Positions 1-19,852 are shown, counted from the stretch's first letter. The stretch: DNA of 20,000 nt from an uncultured virus (IMG/VR IMGVR_UViG_3300046507_000471) (IMGVR_UViG_3300046507_000471); one strand, 5' to 3'. The notes: generated by a model from the letters alone, not told the origin. Translations and numbers: made by a program.

Positions 1-1101
1 CTATCAAGCATCGATGTAGAATCGCAAATTAATGCGCTTAAGGCTGAGATCAAAGAAACTAAGTCTCCGTCTAAGAGAGACGCAATTGTTAAAAAAATCA
101 AGTACTTAGCTGGGCTAAAAAAAGTGGGCTTGAACCCTGAGTCAGCTTATGTGCTTCACAATATTCCAGTAACACCTCCATTAGTTCGTCCTAGTATTCC
201 TATGGGTGGTAATCGTATTGAGTTCGCTGATGTGAATACTCTTTACCGTGACCATATGACCATCAACAATTCTCTAAAGGATATCAAGGATGACCTTACT
301 CATGATCAATTGGTTAATGAACGCAAAGATGCTTATAATGGCGTCAAAGCTATTTTCGGTCTCGGTGATGCCGTATCTGGGAGCGCACGAGGAAAGGAAC
401 TAAAAGGTTACATCCAGCAAATCTCTGGAGATACTGGGCCTAAAGGCGGATTCTTCCACAACAAACTTCTTAAGAAGAAACAAGACTTCTCAGGTAGAGC
501 AACTATTTATGCAGAGCCTAATCTTGGCTTCAACGAAGTTGCTGCACCAAAGGATATGCTGTGGACAATGTATGAGTTCCACATCATTCGTGACTTGGTT
601 CGTAACGGCTATGATTTGATTGCTGCCAGAAAAGCTGTAGAAAATAGGGATGTAGCTGCAACGAACAGCTTTAACAAGATGATTAAGCAGGTTCCTGTTA
701 TTCTTAACCGGGCTCCTACTCTAATGAGAACCAACATTACGGCTCACTTCCCTGTGCCTATTGAGGGCAAGACACTTGGTATCAATCCTCTGCATCTTCC
801 TATGTATGCAGGTGACTTCGATGGCGATGCTTTAACGTTGCACGTACCGATGACCCCAGAAGCAGTTGAAGAAGCTAAACAAAAGCTTCTGCCACAACAA
901 CACATTTACGACTATCGTAAAGGCCAAGGCGCATCAATGGTAGCACCTGGCCACGAAGCCGTTATTGGTTCTATGGCAATTACTGAACCTGATACAACTC
1001 AAGCTCCTCGTGAATTCGCAACAGAAGAAGATGCTCTCGAAGCTCTACGCAAGGGCGAAATCAACGAGAACACTCCGCTAAAAATCACTAGCCACGGCTA
1101 A
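1..1101 (+). CDS. Phage multisubunit RNA polymerase beta' subunit, N-terminal (catalytic) half; 5'-truncated by the window edge
   Basis: The frame is open from base 1 (LSSIDVESQ...), so the ORF-track start at 124 is not the true start. RpoC motifs in order: IPVTPPLVRP, KGGFFHNKLLKKKQDFSGRATI (cf. [22 protein letters not shown]), VILNRAPTL, and catalytic YAGDFDGD at 805-828 followed by LHVPMTPEA. Confidence 0.96.
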   Translation, partial: LSSIDVESQINALKAEIKETKSPSKRDAIVKKIKYLAGLKKVGLNPESAYVLHNIPVTPPLVRPSIPMGGNRIEFADVNTLYRDHMTINNSLKDIKDDLTHDQLVNERKDAYNGVKAIFGLGDAVSGSARGKELKGYIQQISGDTGPKGGFFHNKLLKKKQDFSGRATIYAEPNLGFNEVAAPKDMLWTMYEFHIIRDLVRNGYDLIAARKAVENRDVAATNSFNKMIKQVPVILNRAPTLMRTNITAHFPVPIEGKTLGINPLHLPMYAGDFDGDALTLHVPMTPEAVEEAKQKLLPQQHIYDYRKGQGASMVAPGHEAVIGSMAITEPDTTQAPREFATEEDALEALRKGEINENTPLKITSHG

Positions 1102-1942: not shown

Positions 1943-3307
1943 TTAGAGATTTACTCGGTCAAGGTCCCCATCAGAAAACCCATTGTAAACTGGGAATCTG
2001 ATTTGACCACCTGGAACGCTAGGAGGATACGCTTTTACTTGAATTAGCTTCTCATTAAACATGGCTGGATTCTTCCAGGCTTGGATTCTAGTGTCTCTAT
2101 CAAACCCAGTTCCAACCTTTCCTACCATACGTCCTGAGGCATCAGCCAAAATCAATGCACCCATACTATCTTTTGGGTTGCCCTTGATGTCGATTTCTTG
2201 TTGCTGGCCAATAACCTTCAGATTATACGTTACGTAGTTCTTTACTTTGTATCGTACTGATTCTGTCTCAGGCTTAGCGTAGTCCGCAACTATTAAGCCT
2301 TCGCCTTTCTGGCTCTTGATAGTATCTAGGTATTTGTTGATCGCATCTACCCCGTACTCTAAGTGAGGTGCAAACATCAAATCAGAATTTCCGTAGTCCT
2401 TTTCGAACTTTTGAAGATACTCAACTTTATCTTTGTATGTTGCGAGATTCGGATTCTTAACGTCAATTAGCACAGCACGTACTGGGCCTTTCTCAGCTTG
2501 AGTTGCAATAGATCTCGGAGGTAGAGAATTAAGAATACCTGAAACTGTAGGGTGCGACTCGGTTTCAGACTTTGCAAGTCCGGTGTGTACAAGCTCTACC
2601 GCAAACTGGTTACCAACGTATTCTGGCATTGGTTTAGCCAGATGTGGAAGCTGTGCTGAACGCTCTGGGAATCCACCTTTTACACTTGGCCTACGTGAAT
2701 GGTAAGTTAAAGAGCCATCAGGCTGTACGGTAAGCACAAAGTGGGCCCCGTCCCATTTCTTTGATGCAACTGGATGTTCGAGTGCTGTCCAATCGCCTTC
2801 TACGTATTTGTGTCTGACGTATGTGTCGATTGAAGCTTGCTTCTGAATTTGACTAAGGTACGGATTGATACCTTCTACAAACAACTGACTCCCCAAAGGA
2901 CCAATACCTCTGAAGGACTGAATCTCAGCACGAATTTCTTCAGGAGTATGATTATCTATCAGATTATTAATAGTCCCGTACTTCTCTCTCAGGTGTTTGG
3001 CCTGAGCAAGCATCGTAGTAGCTGTTGACTCATCGAAACGTCCGTAATGGCCTTGAACTAATGCATCACGTAGATTTTCCCAGCCTGCAGACTCAACAGC
3101 TTCCGGGGAATAAAACCCCTTCGAAGCCATGTGTTTAGCAGCTAAAGATGCGACTGAACGTTGAATAGGCCTAGAGAAAAGAGTGACGGCTGTCATCCAC
3201 TTGTACAGTTCTTTCTCATCACCTTTTGACAAGTCAAAGCCTAGACTTTCCGGACTTGCCGGTTCTTTAAGCTGAGCTGCCATTTTCTCTAGGTACTTGT
3301 TAGTCAT
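1943..3307 (-). CDS. Fusion: NKYLEKMA tag + HhH-GPD/glycosylase-like domain + ATP-dependent DNA ligase (454 aa)
   Basis: Ligase motifs: I KKWDG, III AVELV, IIIa VLIDV, IV EGLIV, V YKVK, OB-fold KVGTGFD, VI IRFPVY. The N-terminal ~150 aa (LGFDL..ELYKW..GHYGRFDESTA..FRGIGP) match small bacterial HhH-superfamily proteins. QKQAS lies between the domains (2831-2845). Confidence 0.9.
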   Translation of the reverse strand: MTNKYLEKMAAQLKEPASPESLGFDLSKGDEKELYKWMTAVTLFSRPIQRSVASLAAKHMASKGFYSPEAVESAGWENLRDALVQGHYGRFDESTATTMLAQAKHLREKYGTINNLIDNHTPEEIRAEIQSFRGIGPLGSQLFVEGINPYLSQIQKQASIDTYVRHKYVEGDWTALEHPVASKKWDGAHFVLTVQPDGSLTYHSRRPSVKGGFPERSAQLPHLAKPMPEYVGNQFAVELVHTGLAKSETESHPTVSGILNSLPPRSIATQAEKGPVRAVLIDVKNPNLATYKDKVEYLQKFEKDYGNSDLMFAPHLEYGVDAINKYLDTIKSQKGEGLIVADYAKPETESVRYKVKNYVTYNLKVIGQQQEIDIKGNPKDSMGALILADASGRMVGKVGTGFDRDTRIQAWKNPAMFNEKLIQVKAYPPSVPGGQIRFPVYNGFSDGDLDRVNL

Positions 3308-5234
3308 TTTTCATTAGTCCTTTTACTTCATCAAACAGTTCTTCTTTAGTATCTGAATTCTCTGACAAATACTTATCAATCGAATACGGAGTCTTGCCCC
3401 ACATAGGCTTCGGATGTACGCTGTGGAAATGCTCGACTAGCACATTGCGCTCCGCTTCTGGCAGATGTTCGTGTGAACCAAATCGTACAGCACGCCCAAC
3501 TACCTGGTTGATTTTACTGGGGTTGAAGTGAGGTTCTAGCACTTGCACTCGCTTTGTCCCCTTGGAATCCAACCCCTCTGAACCTGAAGATGAAATCAGC
3601 AGAACCTTCTTCTTACCTGAGTTGTATTCTTTGACCAAGTGATCCTTCTCTGCTCTTGACAGTGACCCATCATAGATAGCATGGTCAATCTTGGCTTCTT
3701 TCAGTTTTCTAGAATAGTCTCGCAGGCCAGCATCGAGGTAGTTCGAATATACAAGTGCCTTGAAGTTCTTATCCTCTGCCATACCCTTCTGTAAGCTCTC
3801 TACGGCCTTCAGGATCTTAGGTGAGTACTCAGCCTTACCGTCTAACGTCAAGTGCCTGTGACCGTTAGAAACCTGTCTTACGCCAGCAGAGAATGAATTA
3901 AGACTTGCCATTTCTTTCTTGTCCATAGGCATATTGTGCCTCAATTTCATCCGTAATAGAAATGGTAATTTCCCTTCAGCAAACTTGTAATACTTCTGCT
4001 GTTCCTTAGACATTTCCACTTCTACTATCTTTTCAGTCTTCTTCGGGAAGTGCTTTGCAGCTGCAGGGTCATCCTGACTGTCATAGAAACTTACGTATTG
4101 ATTGAGAATTTCCTTAAGCTCTTTCCTACGGTCGAGTCTACGCACTGCTTCAGGCTTGGCTCCAAGAAGTCTATCTTTGAAACCTGGCTTAATGATTTCT
4201 TCTTTCGTGTAACGATCTTCCATCTTCTTGGCTTCTTCCGGAAGAACATTATCATTTGCAGCAATGTTTACAAGAGCTGATATATCAGAGAGCTTATTGT
4301 AATTGCCAGTAGCAGTTGCAAGTAAACGACGATCAGCACCGCTGATAATGTCTCGGAGTTCTCTAGTACGTTTAGTGTTCGTGTTACGGAGCCTGTGAGC
4401 TTCGTCAGCAACTGCGATGGAGTAATCATTTTTACGTAGTTTGTGTGCATCGTTAACAGCTTTTTCGTAGGACATTACATCCAGTCGATTTCTGTCCAAG
4501 TTAATCTTGTGCTTCTTAAGTTCTTTATCAACGTTCGTGACGAGACTGGCAGGAGCAATGACCAGCGCCCTCTTTTTAGGGTACTGTTCTTGATACTTCT
4601 GTACTGCCTTAAGAAACGTCTTTGTCTTGCCGCTGCCAAGGCTGTGATGAAGGACAACGCCTTTTTCTTTATCCAAATGGTCAAGAGCGTCAATTTGGTG
4701 AGGCTGTAGGTCACTTTTCTGTTCCTGTTTCTTCTTGGCAATCTTTTCTAGATATACGTTACCACCAGCATAATCGTCAAGCGCCCAAGCCTTCTTTTCG
4801 AGAGAAGTCTTACGTGTGAGATATGGACTTTGACTCTTACCCATTCCGGTAATGTTTCGAAATATCCAAGAAGTAGGGGCATCTTTCGTAGGGGACTTCT
4901 TCAACAAAAACTTCTCACCGTCTTTGGTGAAGATTACCAGCATAGTCTCTGTGCTGTGTGGTGCTACAATCGCCTTACGAACCCAATCTAGATACGTAGT
5001 TCCAGCGCCATATTGGCCTTTTGGAATTACAACCTTTTTACTCAATGCGTATGCACGGTCATGGACCGGCTGTTCAAATACGCCAATGATTTCACCCGGC
5101 TTTGGCATATCTTTAAGCGTTGCAAAAGAATAAGCTTTGTCTCCATGAACAAGTCTTAGATCGTAGTGAGTGCCCATTACGTCGGCTTCGTGCCGCTGAC
5201 GGGTGAAGAGGAATTCGTCGTTTGGTTGTAACAT
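3300..5234 (-). CDS. Fusion: LigD-type 3'-phosphoesterase (PE) domain + SNF2-family (D6/D11-like) helicase/ATPase (644 aa)
   Basis: PE signature QRHEA..THYDLRL..SFA..PVHDRAY..IPKGQYGAGT. SF2 motifs LQPHQ, HSLGSGKT, VIAPASL, DEAHRLRN, ATAT, LVYS, SGSEGLD, QVVGRAVRFGSH. The linker contains NVYLEKIA. Confidence 0.92.
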   Translation of the reverse strand: MLQPNDEFLFTRQRHEADVMGTHYDLRLVHGDKAYSFATLKDMPKPGEIIGVFEQPVHDRAYALSKKVVIPKGQYGAGTTYLDWVRKAIVAPHSTETMLVIFTKDGEKFLLKKSPTKDAPTSWIFRNITGMGKSQSPYLTRKTSLEKKAWALDDYAGGNVYLEKIAKKKQEQKSDLQPHQIDALDHLDKEKGVVLHHSLGSGKTKTFLKAVQKYQEQYPKKRALVIAPASLVTNVDKELKKHKINLDRNRLDVMSYEKAVNDAHKLRKNDYSIAVADEAHRLRNTNTKRTRELRDIISGADRRLLATATGNYNKLSDISALVNIAANDNVLPEEAKKMEDRYTKEEIIKPGFKDRLLGAKPEAVRRLDRRKELKEILNQYVSFYDSQDDPAAAKHFPKKTEKIVEVEMSKEQQKYYKFAEGKLPFLLRMKLRHNMPMDKKEMASLNSFSAGVRQVSNGHRHLTLDGKAEYSPKILKAVESLQKGMAEDKNFKALVYSNYLDAGLRDYSRKLKEAKIDHAIYDGSLSRAEKDHLVKEYNSGKKKVLLISSSGSEGLDSKGTKRVQVLEPHFNPSKINQVVGRAVRFGSHEHLPEAERNVLVEHFHSVHPKPMWGKTPYSIDKYLSENSDTKEELFDEVKGLMKND

Positions 5235-5306: not shown

Positions 5307-6446
5307 TTAAGCCGTAAGTCTCTGGTACGTCTCTTGGATTTTGCTTTTAATAGTTTCTTCGGAAGAACTCAGCAAGAAGAACTCGAAGTCTTGCTTTGCA
5401 GAAATCTCTGCTTCGAATGCAGGTTTGAACGTCTTGAACGGGATAGTATCAGAGTCTAGTCCTGTCACTTCTTGAATCACAGCATCATTGTACTTAGCGC
5501 CGATGAGAGAATACTTTACACGATTCTCGCTCATTGTCGTGTATTCTCTATATGACCCAGGGTTCCAGCCTTCCCACAGTTTAAGTCTGTGTTTATTAGA
5601 AGTCACTGGTAGTGAAGTAGGAGTTGTGAGACTTTCCCAGTCAGCTGTTCTGAGAAACTCTACTGCTTGGCGGAACATGTCGCATCCAAAATAATCATCT
5701 GGACCCGTGTACTGTTTAGCCTCGTTCATGTGGAAATCAGAAAATGAAACGTATTTTCCTTTAAGGATCCACGTTACGATATCTCCGATATTTCTGAAGT
5801 TTGCGTAGGTGGCGTCGGAATACGCCCTATTACTCATCCCAAGCAATCTTACTGAACAGTCTCCTGAGGAAGATACAATAAACTCACTTGTGACTCCGTT
5901 TCCATTGTCCCCAGCATATTTGACACAAACGTCCTCGGAAAGATAAAAGCCCGATTCCTTAAGTACAATATTCAGAAGTTTATACAAACCTCCGTAACCG
6001 AAAAATAAAATCTGAGCTTGGGCATCTAAGTATCCGCCTGCTCTACTATTTGTAGCATGCCTGCCATCAGTTACGTGCCATAACGTTACCTTAACCCCAT
6101 CGAACATAAAGGTAGTATAGTTTTGAGTTTTCTCGTTACGCTCAGAATTTTGTGCTCCTATATGTACGAGAAACGCATTGATAACATCTTCGTTATTGCT
6201 ACGGTTATATGAGTAGTTATCCATTGTCATTTCTATGGATTCTACATAAGCTTGCTCGTTAGGCTTATAATACGATTTAAGTTCACGAACATTTCCACTT
6301 AACTTGACTTGGGTCAAACAGTCTCGAAAAGCTCTGGCAAGACGGGTCTTGATTTGTCTGCGTTCGTCGTAAGTCTTAGGGATTTGCGTCCAGTATTCGT
6401 CAGATGCAGAACTTACTGGTGTTACAGTTGAAGAAAGATTAACCAT
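5307..6446 (-). CDS. Hypothetical protein, possibly a divergent phage Pol-beta/PolX-like nucleotidyltransferase-family member (379 aa)
   Basis: Long ORF followed by a terminator. Segments YGGLYKLLNIVLKESGF, FRNIGDIVTWILKGKY and KYNDAVIQEVTGL recall a phage nucleotidyltransferase-like family from memory; no GDxD motif is visible. Confidence 0.45.
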   Translation of the reverse strand: MVNLSSTVTPVSSASDEYWTQIPKTYDERRQIKTRLARAFRDCLTQVKLSGNVRELKSYYKPNEQAYVESIEMTMDNYSYNRSNNEDVINAFLVHIGAQNSERNEKTQNYTTFMFDGVKVTLWHVTDGRHATNSRAGGYLDAQAQILFFGYGGLYKLLNIVLKESGFYLSEDVCVKYAGDNGNGVTSEFIVSSSGDCSVRLLGMSNRAYSDATYANFRNIGDIVTWILKGKYVSFSDFHMNEAKQYTGPDDYFGCDMFRQAVEFLRTADWESLTTPTSLPVTSNKHRLKLWEGWNPGSYREYTTMSENRVKYSLIGAKYNDAVIQEVTGLDSDTIPFKTFKPAFEAEISAKQDFEFFLLSSSEETIKSKIQETYQRLTA

Positions 6447-7657: not shown

Positions 7658-9484
7658 ATGTCAGAAAAATACACAACAGCCGGGGCACTAAAGCTAAAAA
7701 GCGAACTGCCAACCAAAGAAGCTAGAGACAACTACGACCTATATAGGCCTCTAGATAAGAAAGGTATTTCAGATCTAGTAAATGTGCTTCTGAAACACGG
7801 TGGCGAAAATAGTCACGAGGTTATTAATGATCTCGGCAAGAAGTTCTTTAACAAGGCTACTGAAATTGGCGCTACTACACCGTTAACTGACTACATTAAC
7901 GAAAGCGACGACAGACAAGCTATTATCGATGAATTTGAAACAAAGGTTCATCAAATTTTTGCAAAGAAACTTCCGAAAACTAAAGAAAATGATGAGCTTG
8001 GTGCATTGACCGGGGAATACAACGGTAAGATAGAAAAGCAAAATCTGGAACATCTTTTGTCCAAAGGATCGACTGCAGCCAAGATGGCTCGTACAGGCGC
8101 TCGTGGTAATCCTACACAGCTTGCTACTGGTACTTCAACGCCGCTAATGTCAATTAACTTGAAGGGCGAGCTAGTCCCATACGTAATTAAGTCATCATTT
8201 GCAAAAGGCATGTCTCCTGCTGAGATGCTCGCAATGAGTTACATGGGAAGAGGTAGTACTGTGCTTTCACAGCTTTCAACTGCGCTTCCAGGTGCTCTGT
8301 TCAAGGAACTTTCCCCAACGGTATTCCACGAAACTATCACGATTGATGACTGCGGAACTACCAATGGTATTCTGCTTCCCATCGTTGATAAGAAGGGTGC
8401 TGTTGGAAGATACGAGGCAGGTACAAATCATCTCATCGATGAAGCCTATTATAAGGAACTGGTTAGCTCAGGTCATAAAAACATAAAGGTTCGCAGCGCA
8501 CTTACATGTGAAGCTCACCAAGGTGTTTGCAAGAAATGTTATGGTCTAATGGGAAATGGTAAGCCAGCTGAGATAGGTGAAAATGTGGGCGTAATCGCTG
8601 CCCAATCTGTTTCTGAAGTTCTGACTCAGTCAATGCTTTCAACGAAGCACAAGGCATCAGTTGGTGCTCGTAAGGGTAACTCATACGAACAGGCTTCAAA
8701 CCTGCTCCGTAACCCAGCTGAGAACTTTAAAGATGAAGCCACGATTACTGGTATCAATGGCGTAGTTTCAGCAATTAAGCAAACGCCTCTTGGTGACCAT
8801 CAGGTATTTGTTAATGAACAAATGCACTTCGTCCCACGAGTTCAAAATCTTAAAGTAGCTGTTGGGGACAACGTTCTTAAGGGCGATACTCTTTCAACTG
8901 GAGTTGTAAATCCACGTAAGTTAGTTGCATTGAAAGGCCTTGGTGCCGGTCGCATTCACATGGCCCACGAACTTCGTGGTATCTATGGTTCTGACCTTGA
9001 TCCCCGTCACTTCGAAATGATTGCTAAGAATCTTATTAAGCACGTAGAAGTTCAAGATCCAGGTGAGACAGGCTTTCTACCGGGCCAGAAGGTTGATGTA
9101 AACACTATTCAAAAATACCTGACAAATACGGCTGGTGAAGTGCCTCTTGAAAAGGCTGAAGGTAAGTTACTCGCAAAGGGTGTGTTAGAACTTACAGCAG
9201 GTACTCTTCTTGATGGCAACCACATCAATGAACTTAAGGGTCACGGCGTTAAGACAGTTCACGTAGCTAATACTGGACTCACAGTAACTCCGATCGTTCC
9301 AGGTCTTAAGACAGCCAAGCTACTTGATGAAAACTGGGTTTCAAAGCTTTCCTTCTCAGGTCTTAAGAATACAATTCGTGAAAGTGCTGCAGTAGGTGCT
9401 GAATCAGACGTACACAGTACAGAGCCTATCACTCCGTACATTCTCGGTAGTGAATTCGGTGAAGGTCCTGGAGGACAGTATTAA
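7658..9484 (+). CDS. Phage multisubunit RNA polymerase beta' subunit, C-terminal half (608 aa)
   Basis: RpoC motifs: MARTGARGN; IKSSFAKGM plus bridge helix (..STALPGALFKEL); ITIDDCGT; Zn site VRSALTC..GVCKKCYG; trigger-loop region GENVGVIAAQSVSEVLTQSMLSTKH; RHFEMI; WVSKLSF. Confidence 0.95.
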   Translation: MSEKYTTAGALKLKSELPTKEARDNYDLYRPLDKKGISDLVNVLLKHGGENSHEVINDLGKKFFNKATEIGATTPLTDYINESDDRQAIIDEFETKVHQIFAKKLPKTKENDELGALTGEYNGKIEKQNLEHLLSKGSTAAKMARTGARGNPTQLATGTSTPLMSINLKGELVPYVIKSSFAKGMSPAEMLAMSYMGRGSTVLSQLSTALPGALFKELSPTVFHETITIDDCGTTNGILLPIVDKKGAVGRYEAGTNHLIDEAYYKELVSSGHKNIKVRSALTCEAHQGVCKKCYGLMGNGKPAEIGENVGVIAAQSVSEVLTQSMLSTKHKASVGARKGNSYEQASNLLRNPAENFKDEATITGINGVVSAIKQTPLGDHQVFVNEQMHFVPRVQNLKVAVGDNVLKGDTLSTGVVNPRKLVALKGLGAGRIHMAHELRGIYGSDLDPRHFEMIAKNLIKHVEVQDPGETGFLPGQKVDVNTIQKYLTNTAGEVPLEKAEGKLLAKGVLELTAGTLLDGNHINELKGHGVKTVHVANTGLTVTPIVPGLKTAKLLDENWVSKLSFSGLKNTIRESAAVGAESDVHSTEPITPYILGSEFGEGPGGQY

Positions 9485-13018: not shown

Positions 13019-13189
13019 ATGAATAAGTATCTAGAAAAAATCGCATCAAAGAAGAAGAGTGGTCAGCTTACTATGCGTGCTGGTCAAAAGCCTATTAAGC
13101 ACCCTAAGAAGCCTTTTGTCTCCTTGTCTGCCAAGGTTAAAATAAAGTCACAGAAACATGGAGCCAAAAATGGCAAACGTAACCCCTGA
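13019..13189 (+). CDS. Tagged, highly basic 56-aa peptide (MNKYLEKIASKKKSGQLTMRAGQKPIKHPKKPFVSLSAKVKIKSQKHGAKNGKRNP); not in ORF track
   Basis: Begins with the exact MNKYLEKIAS tag, 2 nt after the upstream stop, and fills the apparent intergenic gap. Confidence 0.85.
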   Translation: MNKYLEKIASKKKSGQLTMRAGQKPIKHPKKPFVSLSAKVKIKSQKHGAKNGKRNP

Positions 13190-14809: not shown

Positions 14810-15592
14810 ATGAATAAGTATTTAGAAAAAATAGCCGCTGATAAAGAGCATTTTTCTAAAAAGCAGAAAACAGCAGCTGGTGGTGGAGCTGCTGTTCTCG
14901 GTGCGTCTGTAGTTAATAAGCAGTACCACGGTGGCCATATAACTGGCCGTGAGACTCTTTACCACGGAACCTCTGCTGCTAATAAAGAACAAATTCTTAA
15001 AGACGGTCTTAAACCAAGAGCGAAGAAAGGTATTATCGATATCGCTCAAGATGCGACAGGCCAAAATTTAAAGTCAGACAACTTAACGTTTATGACTAGA
15101 AGTAAAATGCAAGCACACAGCTATGCGAATCAAGCATCACGTATTGAGAATGGTACTTTTAACATACACGATATGGTGGGACGTCTTAAAGATGCTATTC
15201 CTGGTAAAGAAAGTTCTAAGGGTGTAATTAATATCAACGCTCCTACTTGGAAAAAAGACGAATTTCGTAAGGTACGGAACCCTGAAGTAAAAACAAGTTT
15301 CAAAACGGTAAACGAAGACGCCTTCTCTCCCAAGTTTGCAAAAACTCAACAGAAGCGCACTATATACTCAACACTTGAAAAAGAAGTCTTTACCAATAAA
15401 GGCAACGTTTCAAACAAGTATATGGAGGGTTCTAAGGCGTATCAGAAGAATTCTCTTGGTGAAATTAGAGAATTTGCGAAAGCGAATACTAAACGTTTCT
15501 TGAAGGGTACTGGTAAGGCTGCAATGGGCGCTGCAATGATCGGTGGAGGTTTAGCCTACGCCGCTAACCAATTTAAAAAACATGGAAAATAA
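14810..15592 (+). CDS. Tagged protein with an ADP-ribosyltransferase/Tpt1-like fold motif (260 aa)
   Basis: MNKYLEKIAA start; LYHGTS..EQILKDGLKP followed by TFMT...AHSYA, the pattern seen in H-type ART-fold and KptA-like domains. Confidence 0.6.
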   Translation: MNKYLEKIAADKEHFSKKQKTAAGGGAAVLGASVVNKQYHGGHITGRETLYHGTSAANKEQILKDGLKPRAKKGIIDIAQDATGQNLKSDNLTFMTRSKMQAHSYANQASRIENGTFNIHDMVGRLKDAIPGKESSKGVININAPTWKKDEFRKVRNPEVKTSFKTVNEDAFSPKFAKTQQKRTIYSTLEKEVFTNKGNVSNKYMEGSKAYQKNSLGEIREFAKANTKRFLKGTGKAAMGAAMIGGGLAYAANQFKKHGK

Positions 15593-16112
15593 GTACCTAG
15601 AAAAAATCGCCTCTATCTCCAATTTCGGAAAGAGCTTCGCAAAAGGTTGGAACAGAAGCTCTACCACTTCAAAAATTGGTCTAGGCATGTCTGCTACTGG
15701 TCTTACTCTTGGTGCTGCTAATTATGCAAATAGTCTAGAGAATAAGCAAGATAATAAACATCGCAGTGTAATAGAAGCTCAGTCTTTGAATGAACTTAAG
15801 GGTATCTCAGAAGCGCTGAAAAAGAAACCTAAGGTAACTGTAAACCTTAAACTTACTCCTTCTCAAGAAAAACAAGCCAGCGTTGCACGAGCTGCTAGAG
15901 ATGCGTTGCATTTTGCAAAACAGCGCCCCATTGTTTCAGTAGGTACGGCAGCAGGTGCGTTAGAGGGCGTCAATAAGACTACTCGTAAAAATAATGAATC
16001 TTTAGTTGGAGTTGGTCTTAGAGGCGTTAAGAACACTATCGTTGGCGGTGTCGCTGGAGCAGCAGTAGGGACAGTATTAGAACACGGTTATAACAAATAC
16101 ATTCGTAATTAA
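15582..16112 (+). CDS. Tagged Gly-rich basic protein (176 aa)
   Basis: MENKYLEKIAS start; internal EKQAS; GxxxG-rich hydrophobic segments. Confidence 0.8.
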   Translation: MENKYLEKIASISNFGKSFAKGWNRSSTTSKIGLGMSATGLTLGAANYANSLENKQDNKHRSVIEAQSLNELKGISEALKKKPKVTVNLKLTPSQEKQASVARAARDALHFAKQRPIVSVGTAAGALEGVNKTTRKNNESLVGVGLRGVKNTIVGGVAGAAVGTVLEHGYNKYIRN

Positions 16113-16136: not shown

Positions 16137-17651
16137 ATGCTAACAAAACTAATCGATACGTCTTCTTTTTACCGTGACGAACCACAGGTAACTATTCTCG
16201 ATCCTAAGGATCTTACAGGCAGTCTTATCAAACAGGCTACGGATTCTCGCATCCAAGAATTCGCTTCCAAAATTACCCCAGTACAGGGTAAGACGTATCT
16301 TCACATTCTTGCTATGGGCGCAGGAGAGTATTACGGTGCCAATCGTAATGCCGACTACTTTCCAGAAAGCAACCTCATTGATTATCACAATACCTTTGAG
16401 ACGGCTCCTGCCCATATTTTCCGTAACCACGTAAACAAAAATCCAGAAATCGCCATAGGTCAAGTTGTGTACTCTGTCTATAACGATAGAATGCACCGTG
16501 TTGAACTTATCGCTGAACTATGGAATGACAAAGCCCCTGACATCGTTGATCGTATCGAGAGCGGGGACTGGCCTAAGACTTCAATGGCTTGCCGTACTCC
16601 ATTCGACGTATGCTCTATTTGCGGTAACAAGGCAAAGACTCGTGAACAGTATTGTGAACACTTGAGCGAACAGCTTGGTAAGGTATTCCCTGATGGTCGT
16701 AAGGTCATGGCTCTAAACCTGGCTCCATTACGATTTTTCGACATTTCTATTGTGTTTCGTCCAGCTGACGTAACTAGCGCCGTTCTACAAAAAATAGCAT
16801 CTGAAAGCGCAGTTGTTGGATCTGTTGATGAAGCACTCATGGCTGGTCTTAACGATCTGCCTCTTCAAAAGAGCGCTACTCTCAAAAAGCTTTCAGAATT
16901 AACGAAGGAGATTGACGGCGATGTTGTATCTATCGATCCTAGTCTTGATAATCTTGTATCACGAGTTAGTGATCCGCAAGGTGACGTCATTGACGTTCTC
17001 CGAAATTATAAGCTTAATGAAACTTTTAGTACCTTTGCTCATCTTGGTATTAGCCCTTCGATTGGTTTTCTTGCTGAACTAATTGGACGTAAACTAATGG
17101 GTGAAGAGGGACGTGGTATTGGCCCAATGGCTGCTGCGTACTTTGACCGTGCTGGTATTAGCTCACTCCCCGAATTCGACCGTGATTTTGGCGAAATAAC
17201 AGAACCAAATATCGGTATCGTTCACGCTATGCTTCCTCATATGCAGGATTCCTCGTATCTACCTCAGTATGTGGAAGAGCGTGTATCGTTGAACAAACAA
17301 GCTTCGACTTATGGATTTATGCAAGGAACTAATGTAGGTTATGTAGGCAATGGCCCACACATTGAACCTACTATGTATGAGAAGTTCCGTGAACAAAACC
17401 TGAAGTCAGAAGAAGAGAACAAGTCAGGTCTAATGAAGGTTCTTTCTGCCATTGCTGCCATCGGTGGCGCTGCCCTCGCAGCAAAGTGGTATATTACGCA
17501 AGTTATCGAACGTAAAATGAAAGAACAAGAATTGAACAAGACTTCAGATGGTGTTAAAATAGTTTTAGTTAAATCTGCTTCTGACTATAAGCTAACTTAC
17601 AAACTCGCAAAAACAGCGATGCTTAAGTTGGTTCAGAAGAAAAAGAATTGA
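16137..17651 (+). CDS. Prohead (maturation) protease, HK97/assemblin-like fold with Zn-finger insert and long C-terminal extension (504 aa)
   Basis: Ordered motifs NRNADYF, IFRNH (His), TSMAC (Ser) and FFDISIVFRPAD (cf. EISxVxxPA); Cys/His cluster CSIC..YCEHL; located just before the scaffold-like gene. Confidence 0.75.
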   Translation: MLTKLIDTSSFYRDEPQVTILDPKDLTGSLIKQATDSRIQEFASKITPVQGKTYLHILAMGAGEYYGANRNADYFPESNLIDYHNTFETAPAHIFRNHVNKNPEIAIGQVVYSVYNDRMHRVELIAELWNDKAPDIVDRIESGDWPKTSMACRTPFDVCSICGNKAKTREQYCEHLSEQLGKVFPDGRKVMALNLAPLRFFDISIVFRPADVTSAVLQKIASESAVVGSVDEALMAGLNDLPLQKSATLKKLSELTKEIDGDVVSIDPSLDNLVSRVSDPQGDVIDVLRNYKLNETFSTFAHLGISPSIGFLAELIGRKLMGEEGRGIGPMAAAYFDRAGISSLPEFDRDFGEITEPNIGIVHAMLPHMQDSSYLPQYVEERVSLNKQASTYGFMQGTNVGYVGNGPHIEPTMYEKFREQNLKSEEENKSGLMKVLSAIAAIGGAALAAKWYITQVIERKMKEQELNKTSDGVKIVLVKSASDYKLTYKLAKTAMLKLVQKKKN

Positions 17652-18945: not shown

Positions 18946-19371
18946 ATGAATAAATATCTTGAAAAAATCGCTAGTCTGAATTTTGATGTAGATAGTCAAG
19001 GTCGAATCAAATCGGCTAGTATGACTGTCAAGCAAGATGTAAGCCTAGGGAAGGTAAAAGAGCCTGCGCCAATCACGGCTCCGGGTTCAAAACTGGTCAG
19101 AGGAGCGAAGTCTCTCTTTGCCAGAGCGTTGCATAAAGCTGCGCAAGATTTAACGCATAAACAAGAATTGATCAATACTGGTGTCATTGCAGGGCTAGGT
19201 ACAGCAACCGGCTTCGCTGCCCATAAAGCCATGAACTCGGCACCGAAAATGTTTGGTCAAGGAGCTAAGTTCCACAATGCTAAAATTATGGCATTGAGCG
19301 GGGCAGCTGGACTAGCGGCAGATTATGCCGGTGTTAAACTAAATAAACAGATTAACAAACATGTCCAATAA
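18946..19371 (+). CDS. Tagged Gly/Ala-rich basic protein (141 aa)
   Basis: MNKYLEKIAS start; IKSAS and HKAAQ motifs; two Gly-rich hydrophobic segments. Confidence 0.8.
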   Translation: MNKYLEKIASLNFDVDSQGRIKSASMTVKQDVSLGKVKEPAPITAPGSKLVRGAKSLFARALHKAAQDLTHKQELINTGVIAGLGTATGFAAHKAMNSAPKMFGQGAKFHNAKIMALSGAAGLAADYAGVKLNKQINKHVQ

Positions 19372-19852
19372 ATACCTAGAGAAAGTTGCTTCTCTATTTC
19401 CGAGTAAAGAGTATAAAAAGACTCTGTCCGGAAAAGAAAGGAGAGACTACGACGTAGAATACGCCACTGCTGGTGGTGCAAGTCTTAAAAATTTTGGAAA
19501 AAGCCTTCTAGGTATAGGTGTAGTAGGCTTAGGTGCTGGATTAGGACATCATGCGGGAGCAACGCTTGGTAGTAAAATCGGAGCAAAGATTGGTGCCAAG
19601 CAAGGTAAGAAGTTCGGTGCAGAGGCGTATAGAACTCTTATGGCAGGTGGTAAAACTCCGGAACGTGAGGCAAAAGGCTTTGCAGTGTATGCTCACGACA
19701 TGATTAAACAGAAAACCCAAAATACAGGTAGAGCTATGGGTGGAGTTGCTGGAGCTGCAGTAGGTATTATTCCAGGCGCAGCTTACGCTGATAACTTCAG
19801 ACACAACCACGCTAAAAGCGTAATCGAGAAAAGACGTAAACAAAATGACTAA
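19361..19852 (+). CDS. Tagged glycine-zipper protein (163 aa)
   Basis: MSNKYLEKVAS start; GIGVVGLGAGLGHHAGATLGSKIGAKIG and GGVAGAAVG segments. Confidence 0.8.
   Translation: MSNKYLEKVASLFPSKEYKKTLSGKERRDYDVEYATAGGASLKNFGKSLLGIGVVGLGAGLGHHAGATLGSKIGAKIGAKQGKKFGAEAYRTLMAGGKTPEREAKGFAVYAHDMIKQKTQNTGRAMGGVAGAAVGIIPGAAYADNFRHNHAKSVIEKRRKQND

Follow-up and report, generated by a model that had tools for sequence, protein, structure and literature searches.

Multisubunit RNA polymerases (RNAPs) are packaged in the particles of poxviruses (PMC12618233) and likewise in those of Salmonella phage Arash (PMC10585845). The packaged RNAP complex of vaccinia virus includes NPH-I (D11), an ATPase of early transcription termination and elongation. 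SNF2 motors that bind multisubunit RNAPs are also known in RapA/HepA of E. coli and in eukaryotic CSB/Rad26, with CSB linking transcription and repair. Phages carrying their own multisubunit RNAP in the particle are known mainly from the phiKZ-like jumbo phages. For the phiKZ-like group, an SNF2 helicase has been proposed as a RapA-like RNAP partner, on the grounds that its distribution and gene neighbourhood follow those of the RNAP genes (Iyer et al. 2021, PMC7824862), and one such protein, Goslar gp233, has been reported to localise with capsid 'bouquets'. Here we describe an SNF2 ATPase gene from a 20,000-nucleotide stretch (hereafter, the window) of the uncultured virus IMGVR_UViG_3300046507_000471, the source record being a 56.8-kb IMG/VR contig estimated to be 32% complete. 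The gene is on the minus strand, flanked by the halves of an RNAP beta' gene that is split in two, and its 644-residue product (P0001) belongs to a very large unnamed family of phage SNF2 proteins. P0001 combines an SNF2 motor, part of which is specifically similar to NPH-I, with an N-terminal domain resembling the 3'-phosphoesterase of the DNA ligase LigD. The explanation that we favour, tentatively, is that of a packaged translocase with end-healing capacity acting on the incoming phage genome, probably alongside the packaged polymerase.

The assignment of the protein to the SNF2 ATPases, already made in a preliminary description of this DNA, stands. Pfam models SNF2-rel_dom and Helicase_C match with 9.6e-20 and 3.3e-15, respectively, and in PHROGs the protein falls into phrog_62 'DNA helicase' (3.6e-45). 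The helicase motifs include Walker A (GSGKT, residues 200-204), DEAH (277-280) and motif VI (QVVGRAVRFGS, 577-587), with GSGKT, DEAH and QVVGRAVR being invariant across the homologue alignment. The C-terminal peptide quoted in the preliminary description, SGSEGLDSKGTKRVQVLEPHFNPSKINQVVGRAVRFGSHEHLPEAERNVLV, is found verbatim at residues 548-598 of the minus-strand open reading frame (ORF), at about 3441-3593. The span given there for the gene, 3340-4710, covers the SNF2 core but misses the N-terminal 130-residue phosphoesterase domain and the linker. In the AlphaFold2 model, built with 38 homologues, the mean predicted local distance difference test score (pLDDT) is 85.7, and residues 1-130 form an N-terminal domain rich in beta structure, which a linker of low confidence (133-173) connects to the two lobes of the ATPase.

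Judged from sequence and model, the N-terminal domain is an intact-looking LigD-type 3'-phosphoesterase, with predicted activity. Pfam LigD_N is matched at residues 13-81 with an E value of 4.6e-7 and 30.4 bits, against a cut-off of 31.1, and relatives of P0001 score above this cut-off (e.g. 34.1, 41.8 and 54.9 bits). The family profile matches the LigD-type phosphoesterase 3p43 in the PDB with an E value of 2.7e-7. The domain can be superposed on archaeal 3p4h_A with a Z score of 14.8 and a root-mean-square deviation of 1.9 over 113 of 118 residues, at 28% identity. Motifs Q-x-H, HYD-x-R, H..Y and IPxGxYGAG are kept in the alignments to 3p43, 5dmp and 3p4h and are conserved among the fused homologues of P0001; their conserved His, Asp, Arg and Tyr residues are the ones which we take to have catalytic roles. 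Thus, the domain has the same fold and motif pattern as LigD, the ligase of non-homologous end joining, and the archaeal stand-alone enzymes 3p43/3p4h. Unlike in LigD, it is joined to an SNF2 motor and not to a ligase and a polymerase in one chain, and its context is that of a phage particle.

The similarity to NPH-I is concentrated in a short block of the second ATPase lobe. When the whole protein is used to search solved structures, the best matches are generic, with the Sulfolobus SNF2 enzyme (3.6e-11) followed by Rad54, ISW1 and DDM1, and vaccinia NPH-I matches residues 542-603 only (3.4e-5). A query with only the last 121 residues gives 19 PDB matches, headed by NPH-I (6rfl_Y; E value 7.9e-5). 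The alignment extends over 62 residues without a gap (NPH-I residues 437-497), running through motifs V and VI and a following S-H...P...R-x-V-x-V segment, whereas the alignment to RapA requires gaps after motif VI. A 23-sequence profile of the last 150 residues puts NPH-I first of 202 matches (E value 2.9e-12, 49.8 bits), five orders of magnitude ahead of the runners-up, namely, Rad54 (3.5e-7), Mot1 (1.1e-6), Rad26 (8.5e-6), CSB (4.5e-5) and RapA (3.9e-4). Among the best 60 of these 202 matches, NPH-I is the only SNF2 protein aligned well past motif VI, though not over the whole C-terminal tail. In the search with the whole-family profile, NPH-I is third among the best 60 of 144 matches (1.8e-13), all of the score coming from one 64-residue stretch, and no NPH-I-specific similarity is seen in lobe 1. 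S587, H588 and L591, which belong to the block, are invariant in 38 family members. Hence the claim that motifs V-VI are specifically NPH-I (D11)-like is borne out, the block giving the top PDB match for the last 121-150 residues, beyond chance. P0001 and vaccinia NPH-I share a two-lobe SNF2-like ATPase (fold Z score 20.0 over 410 residues), motifs V and VI and a post-motif-VI insertion of the same length. However, the two proteins are only 21% identical overall, the NPHI_C domain (PF08469) is not matched in the Pfam scan of P0001 at E≤0.01, and of the two only the phage protein has a phosphoesterase domain and a putative cargo tag; it is not known to have partners such as Rap94, E11 or tRNA.

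The preliminary description also named D6, the small subunit of the poxvirus factor VETF, and this comparison fares differently. Vaccinia D6 is absent from the best 60 of the 144 whole-family matches, from the best 60 of the 202 last-150-residue matches and from all 19 matches of the last 121 residues, so that a resemblance by sequence was not recovered. Nevertheless, among the viral models of BFVD, 'early transcription factor 70 kDa subunit' proteins of nucleocytoplasmic large DNA viruses (NCLDV) occupy ranks 2 and 4 (24% and 21% identity), although vaccinia D6 itself is not matched by sequence. Rank 1 in BFVD is a 598-residue protein, probably the helicase of Pseudanabaena phage PA-SR01, and ranks 2-5 are all NCLDV proteins with identities of 20-24%; the first named ordinary phage SNF2 protein is at rank 8 (19% identity) and variola NPH-I at rank 46. 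In the ESM Atlas, Nucleocytoviricota clusters are among the nearest, including one 'putative nucleoside triphosphatase I' cluster with NPHI_C. Apart from members of the phage family itself, NCLDV SNF2 proteins thus come closest in structure and features in these similarity rankings of predicted models, which do not amount to a tree.

Whole-protein comparisons with solved folds give Z scores of 21.8 for SWR1, 21.4 for CSB, 21.2 for Ino80, 20.5 for ZorD, 20.4 for Rad26, 20.0 for NPH-I, 18.2 for 7amv_W and 14.5 for RapA. Chain 7amv_W, a 637-residue component of the poxvirus pre-initiation complex which is presumably D6, given its length, ranks among the generic SNF2 fold matches. The best 50 Foldseek rows against the PDB comprise eukaryotic remodellers, CSB, Mot1, Rad54 and the Sulfolobus enzyme. 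While CSB and Rad26 rank high among the fold matches of P0001, RapA is clearly more distant and weaker than many other SNF2 proteins (E value of about 0.1 with the single sequence, in addition to the profile and Z scores above), and no RapA family is matched in the Pfam scan. Unlike RapA/HepA and CSB/Rad26, P0001 contains none of their accessory domains.

Two isolated phages encode close relatives of P0001 among the phage matches listed. Gp217 of Arash is 40% identical over P0001 residues 176-644 (E value 1e-118), and the PA-SR01 helicase is 36% identical. The region aligned with Arash gp217 starts at the first helicase motif, takes in the NPH-I-like block and the C-terminal tail and ends only with the final residue, and the two phages are of the same lineage, with syntenic structural genes. 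Unlike P0001, gp217 (472 residues) has neither a phosphoesterase nor NKYLEKIA, the tag described below. The search of phage records gave 74 matches at E≤1e-5; among the best 30 of these, the other phage SNF2 proteins have identities of at most 25% and alignments ending at or just after motif VI. No phiKZ-like phage is present among these 30 records or in the organism names tallied. The SNF2 protein of the phiKZ group is a different family, called Rad25-related in its own paper (PMC7824862), and the idea of an RNAP-linked phage SNF2 protein has already been published, for that family. By contrast with the few isolates, metagenomic relatives abound. Of the candidates scored, 310 proteins match at E≤1e-5; within the best 120 of these, 41 have LigD_N and the rest are cores of about 485 residues, some with up to 85% identity. 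A scan of IMG/VR yielded 369 relatives on contigs of up to about 210 kb, and in a core-profile search of a 1.84-billion-protein library the best 150 cluster representatives all belong to the family itself (E<1e-150). General topic and phage-name literature searches, none of them aimed at these points, turned up no published account of the NPH-I-like block, the association with LigD domains, the tag or the size of the lineage.

Evidence for packaging comes from purified Arash particles, analysed by liquid chromatography-mass spectrometry. Gp217, annotated as 'DNA helicase', was detected there with 100% coverage, 38 unique peptides and 1148 spectra, compared with 40 unique peptides and 1210 spectra for RNAP beta' (Gp216) and 30 unique peptides and 1333 spectra for the major capsid protein; RNAP beta (Gp206) is the top protein, with 3516 spectra, and the virions also contain a DNA ligase, a phosphoesterase and two RNA ligases (PMC10585845). 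For the packaging of the SNF2 homologue we consider these data good but not clean.

A second line of evidence is a short peptide. The preliminary description had called the ATPase tagged, correctly: P0001 contains NVYLEKIA at residues 159-166, just behind the phosphoesterase domain, and NKYLEKIA heads seven other ORFs of the 56.8-kb record, these being all eight copies found with a pattern around NKYLEKIA in a six-frame translation. Short-form SNF2 homologues begin directly with the tag (MNKYLEKIA). A loosened pattern, applied to 82 compared loci, occurs at 71 of 1866 ORF N-termini versus 69 of 17926 internal 25-residue windows, a tenfold N-terminal enrichment; many of these loci are near-duplicates, and locus counts are not independent, here and below. 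The tag varies by lineage (NKYLEKIA, AF.DELEKIA and AFINGFIKAA, the last on ORFs flanking the SNF2 gene), and in most loci listed the SNF2 protein carries the variant of its own locus. Unrelated ORFs are tagged in loci L019-L023, L030, L034, L050, L067-L070 and L079. In phage T4, N-terminal capsid targeting sequences of 10-19 residues load diverse proteins into the prohead core (PMC9026906, PMC3012670). By analogy, the tag set looks like a capsid-targeting signal system, which may direct proteins into the prohead and, like T4-type sequences, might be cut off by the prohead protease; as in T4, a short N-terminal peptide is common to unrelated cargo (PMC9026906), but unlike in T4, the tag is internal in P0001.

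Most of the tagged ORFs in the window cluster around a head-maturation-protease-like gene (16137-17651). One of them, encoding 260 residues on the plus strand (14810-15592), has a weak match to the RNA 2'-phosphotransferase Tpt1/KptA (E value 0.0011, below the cut-off), a sequence likeness which hints that RNA-repair enzymes may also be cargo. In PA-SR01, the helicase gene is located inside the capsid gene module, and the protein (P0125; locus L003, 8575-10371) has, instead of NKYLEKIA, an N-terminal extension with two repeats resembling twin-arginine signals, RRNFLKN and RRQFLKN.

The placement between the beta' halves, noted in the preliminary description, is confirmed by Rpb1 domains 1-2 on one side and Rpb1 domain 5 on the other (Table 1); the SNF2 gene is part of a minus-strand island flanked by these plus-strand halves. 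The Arash helicase gene comes immediately after the gene for the beta' C-terminal half, which it overlaps, on the same strand, whereas the P0001 gene is on the opposite strand between the halves. In iterative profile searches, 31 of the 82 loci had a beta' piece at most 10 kb away from the SNF2 gene, and in eight the distance was 700 bp or less. Thirteen near-complete relatives, chosen for having no beta' gene near the SNF2 gene, all encode a multisubunit RNAP (Rpb1 domain 2 matched in 9/9 and Rpb2 domain 6 in 4/4). A sigma-like gene (Sigma70_r3, 5.5e-8; phrog_351, 6.1e-8) is found near the SNF2 gene in 10 loci and directly downstream in two. By analogy with NPH-I, which pairs with Rap94, its product might be a candidate partner of the SNF2 motor. 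The sigma-like protein has 256 residues with Sigma70 region 3 and is encoded at 11413-12183 in L069/L072; it also occurs in L022, L023, L025, L031, L033, L059, L066 and L077. The search for such a gene in the present genome was empty, which is uninformative given a record that is 32% complete. A predicted complex of the beta' N-terminal half with the SNF2 core scored 0.00 in a run without controls and speaks neither for nor against binding.

Portal-like genes are present in 15 distant loci, in several of them directly upstream of the SNF2 gene. The gene concerned, which encodes about 600 residues, was considered as an RNAP beta piece and rejected as such, PHROGs giving a weak portal match instead (1.5e-6). 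Further large ORFs close by in distant loci encode DNA polymerase, ribonucleotide reductase, tail or structural proteins, or have no assignment. In one locus (L057, 3627-9911), a 2094-residue portal-like ORF adjoining the SNF2 gene has endonuclease-like and reductase-like inserts (phrog_4645, phrog_26446), and one SNF2 family member (P0214) is interrupted by a LAGLIDADG domain; these inserts are probably inteins or homing endonucleases.

The suggestion that the ATPase acts with the polymerase rather than as a repair enzyme does not hold as a choice between the two. P0001 itself starts with a LigD-type 3'-phosphoesterase, the overlapping downstream gene encodes a tagged ATP-dependent DNA ligase, and LigD-type fusions recur in the family. 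In 20 of the 82 loci a phosphoesterase adjoins the SNF2 gene or is part of it, and the same is true of a ligase in 20. The phosphoesterase can be fused at the N-terminus, encoded by a separate upstream gene or fused to a ligase just downstream (L042, L048), and in L064 a single 1346-residue protein combines SNF2, phosphoesterase and ligase. Of 149 family representatives fetched, 112 are long (at least 590 residues), and 106 of these were scanned with Pfam, six being left unscanned. LigD-type domains are present in 12 of the 106 (LigD_N in 10, ATP-dependent ligase in three, LigD primase-polymerase in two). The other fused domains are pyrophosphatase (11), C39 peptidase (five), GNAT (five), DUF5661 (five), C92 peptidase (three), KTSC (two) and single others, and 2H phosphoesterase is also among the fusions. 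Some relatives reach four or more domains, P0171 consisting of SNF2, pyrophosphatase, C92 peptidase and GNAT. None of the 106 long representatives has a fused sigma or RNAP domain or a methyltransferase partner of the DarB type. Polyvalent proteins, of which P1 DarB is the archetype, have been described as virion-delivered multi-enzyme polypeptides; SNF2-like modules occur commonly in them, and the pyrophosphatase (InPase) domain is packaged cargo (PMC5512222). The family resembles such DarB-type proteins in that an SNF2-like module is joined to assorted enzymes, P0001 itself having two enzymatic domains.

We consider it the best available explanation, though one held tentatively, that P0001 is an ejected translocase with end-healing capacity which works on the genome as it enters, probably together with the packaged polymerase. 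The SNF2 protein would be loaded into the capsid via the short tag common to other cargo proteins and would enter the cell together with the DNA and with the multisubunit RNAP that the phage encodes. The motor would then track along the incoming double-stranded genome using ATP. At obstacles it could push or release the co-packaged polymerase, as NPH-I, CSB or RapA do, and so be coupled to early transcription; at breaks in the template it would bring end-healing and sealing, the fused 3'-phosphoesterase cleaning blocked 3' ends and the co-expressed tagged ligase closing them.

Several observations weigh against this explanation. On the side of packaging, the Arash particle list comprises 116 proteins, including ribonucleotide reductases, and its authors allow for carry-over of abundant enzymes (PMC10585845). 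Arash gp217 has neither the tag nor the phosphoesterase, and packaging of P0001, which is plausible, is argued from a 40%-identical homologue and from gene context. On the side of the polymerase, no beta' gene is seen at up to 10 kb from the SNF2 gene in 51 of the 82 loci, the neighbours there being portal-like, structural, DNA polymerase or unassigned genes, and the co-occurrence with RNAP may reflect one phage lineage only. In PA-SR01 neither Rpb1 domain 2 nor Rpb2 domain 6 is matched; hence, the motor can exist without a phage multisubunit RNAP detectable in this way. The PA-SR01 paper presents no proteomics of particles and is silent on an RNAP. Compared over the whole protein, the fold of the core is that of a generic SNF2 ATPase, for which NPH-I ties with chromatin remodellers. 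On the side of end-healing, the LigD_N score of P0001 is just under the Pfam cut-off, and the mixed fusions of the family fit co-delivered, functionally unrelated polyvalent cargo, so that the phosphoesterase fusion need not mean a single pathway. Recurrence of all three LigD domain types nevertheless looks more specific than the polyvalent pattern.

The preliminary description proposed a packaged transcription factor for the phage RNAP. In its strict form, P0001 would be a dedicated factor, like NPH-I in transcript release and elongation or like D6 at early promoters, and the phosphoesterase would be a passenger; we regard this as a serious candidate, yet somewhat unlikely. Part of the proposal stands, as the Arash homologue is abundant in virions and the family travels with RNAP genes. 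It is further consistent with the NPH-I-specific motif V-VI block being the top PDB match, with the NCLDV early transcription factor models outranking the first named ordinary phage SNF2 protein in BFVD and with the nearby Nucleocytoviricota clusters of the Atlas, one of which has NPHI_C. Gp217 has about the abundance of beta' in Arash virions, and its gene overlaps the end of the gene for the beta' C-terminal half; sigma-like genes are neighbours in other loci, RNAP co-occurs in 13/13 tested genomes, and a similar proposal is in print for the different SNF2 protein of phiKZ-like phages (PMC7824862). The other part does not stand: P0001 has no NPHI_C, vaccinia D6 is not among the sequence matches listed, and lobe 1 has no NPH-I-specific similarity. 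Moreover, LigD-type domains recur in the 106 long representatives while no transcription domain is fused in any of them, and the PA-SR01 motor occurs without a detectable multisubunit RNAP.

If the enzymatic partners are instead taken as the key to function, the motor, the phosphoesterase and the ligase, with the primase-polymerase of relatives, would form a particle-borne LigD-like kit which works independently of the polymerase, mending nicks and broken or blocked ends or joining the ends of the injected genome. The fold and motifs of the phosphoesterase, the translational coupling of the tagged ligase to the SNF2 gene and the recurrence of all three LigD domain types as fusions or neighbours argue for such a kit, as do the DNA ligase and phosphoesterase of Arash virions (PMC10585845) and the PA-SR01 motor, which does not need a phage RNAP. 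However, the phosphoesterase is missing from 79 of the best 120 close homologues and from the Arash protein, and the NPH-I-like block, the linkage to RNAP and the abundance equal to that of beta' are left unexplained, which makes a polymerase-independent function unlikely in our view.

More improbable is a counter-defence or entry effector of the polyvalent kind, whose motor would strip or outrun host nucleases or nucleoid proteins on the entering DNA, or help to pull the genome in, with the fused enzymes serving as independent weapons. The fusions to pyrophosphatase (11/106), C39 and C92 peptidases, GNAT, KTSC and 2H phosphoesterase are what such an effector might carry, and InPase as packaged cargo and SNF2-like modules as common parts are both described for polyvalent proteins (PMC5512222). 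In L063, a neighbouring gene shares a domain with DarB-like proteins, and the ATPase ZorD of the Zorya system is among the fold ties (Z score 20.5). Against this, none of the 106 scanned proteins has a methyltransferase partner as in DarB, the proposal is purely inferential, and it does not explain the RNAP linkage and the NPH-I-like block. Finally, the database name 'DNA helicase' and the carry-over of abundant enzymes mentioned by the Arash authors (PMC10585845) would fit an ordinary unpackaged replication or recombination helicase, but this is very improbable given spectral counts level with those of beta' and the capsid protein, the shared N-terminal tag and the location of the gene in structural, portal or RNAP modules, not in replication modules, in most loci.

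The features of the window are collected in Table 1. From 10349 onward, the genes of the plus strand show synteny with gp218-gp222, which are structural genes of Arash.

Table 1. Positions of the SNF2 gene, its parts and surrounding features in the window (aa, amino acids)
Feature	Position	Strand	Evidence
RNAP beta' N-terminal-half gene, 3' part (full ORF 389 aa in genome)	1..1101	+	Rpb1 domain 2 5.1e-20, domain 1 2.1e-12, phrog_25354
Tagged (MTNKYLEKMA) ATP-dependent DNA ligase, 454 aa, 8-nt overlap downstream of SNF2 gene	1943..3307	-	phrog_114 7.7e-18
Whole ORF P0001, 644 aa	3300..5234	-	LigD-type 3'-phosphoesterase, tagged linker, SNF2 ATPase core and conserved C-terminal tail
SNF2 ATPase core and tail, aa 174-644	3303..4715	-	motifs, Pfam, fold
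NPH-I-like block, aa 542-603: motif V, motif VI and following insertion SH-x3-P-x3-R-x-V-x-V	3426..3611	-	alignments/profile
Linker between phosphoesterase and ATPase, aa 133-173	4716..4838	-	pLDDT <50; variable length in homologue alignment
Internal tag copy NVYLEKIA, aa 159-166	4737..4760	-	motif search, homologue alignment
Predicted N-terminal LigD-type 3'-phosphoesterase domain, aa 1-130	4845..5234	-	Pfam, PDB motifs, fold match
Co-directional 379-aa gene upstream of SNF2 gene	5307..6446	-	no family match; conserved here in close relatives
RNAP beta' C-terminal-half gene, 608 aa, orthologue of Arash gp216	7658..9484	+	Rpb1 domain 5 4.4e-15, phrog_25354 8.8e-50; synteny
Small tagged ORF, 56 aa, MNKYLEKIAS...	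13019..13189	+	tag pattern
Two tagged ORFs, 14810-15592 and 15582-16112	14810..16112	+	tag pattern
Two further tagged ORFs, 18946-19371 and 19361-19852	18946..19852	+	tag pattern

The beta' gene is split into two genes 6.5 kb apart in this genome, and beta' is also split in Arash. In distant relatives (genomes G003, G004, G008 and G009), Rpb1 domains are contained in single giant ORFs of about 1500-3060 residues, and in L083 one 3058-residue ORF matches both halves. The ligase shows a weak likeness to the Chlorella virus ligase in its oligonucleotide/oligosaccharide-binding (OB) domain. Its residues 1-175 include a helix-hairpin-helix-like stretch, RGIGPLGSQLF, and have no Pfam or PDB sequence match; these N-terminal residues, about 175 in number, may form another DNA-binding or lesion-processing domain. 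The 379-residue gene upstream of the SNF2 gene is present in 9 of the 82 loci. An alignment of its product (P0003) with those of the variable upstream genes of other loci was rejected as too heterogeneous (11-19% identity). This minus-strand ORF and a plus-strand ORF of 141 residues start back to back at 6446/6447 with zero intergenic bases. This leaves no room for divergent promoters, and one of the two starts may thus be miscalled.

A broader evolutionary scenario can be proposed, although we think it unlikely. The phage family and the NPH-I/D6-like ATPases of NCLDV would share a specific common origin, marked by the post-motif-VI insertion of the same length. The unit of packaged RNAP and SNF2 motor used by poxviruses and giant viruses for early expression would then have a true phage counterpart, possibly a forerunner, in a large, unstudied clade of 170-210-kb phages. 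There, the motor would be the hub of tag-addressed cargo whose LigD-type enzymes heal and seal the entering genome in a transcription-coupled manner. The present results indicate a second, very large group of phages that carry their own multisubunit RNAP in the particle, with Arash as the one isolate for which particle proteomics is available. If the proposed role of the SNF2 protein is true, Arash in Salmonella would offer a testable system for how packaged polymerases start on incoming DNA, and the tag would be a natural packaging signal for loading proteins into large phage heads. The family would also be a possible evolutionary bridge between the transcription factors of phages and those of giant viruses.

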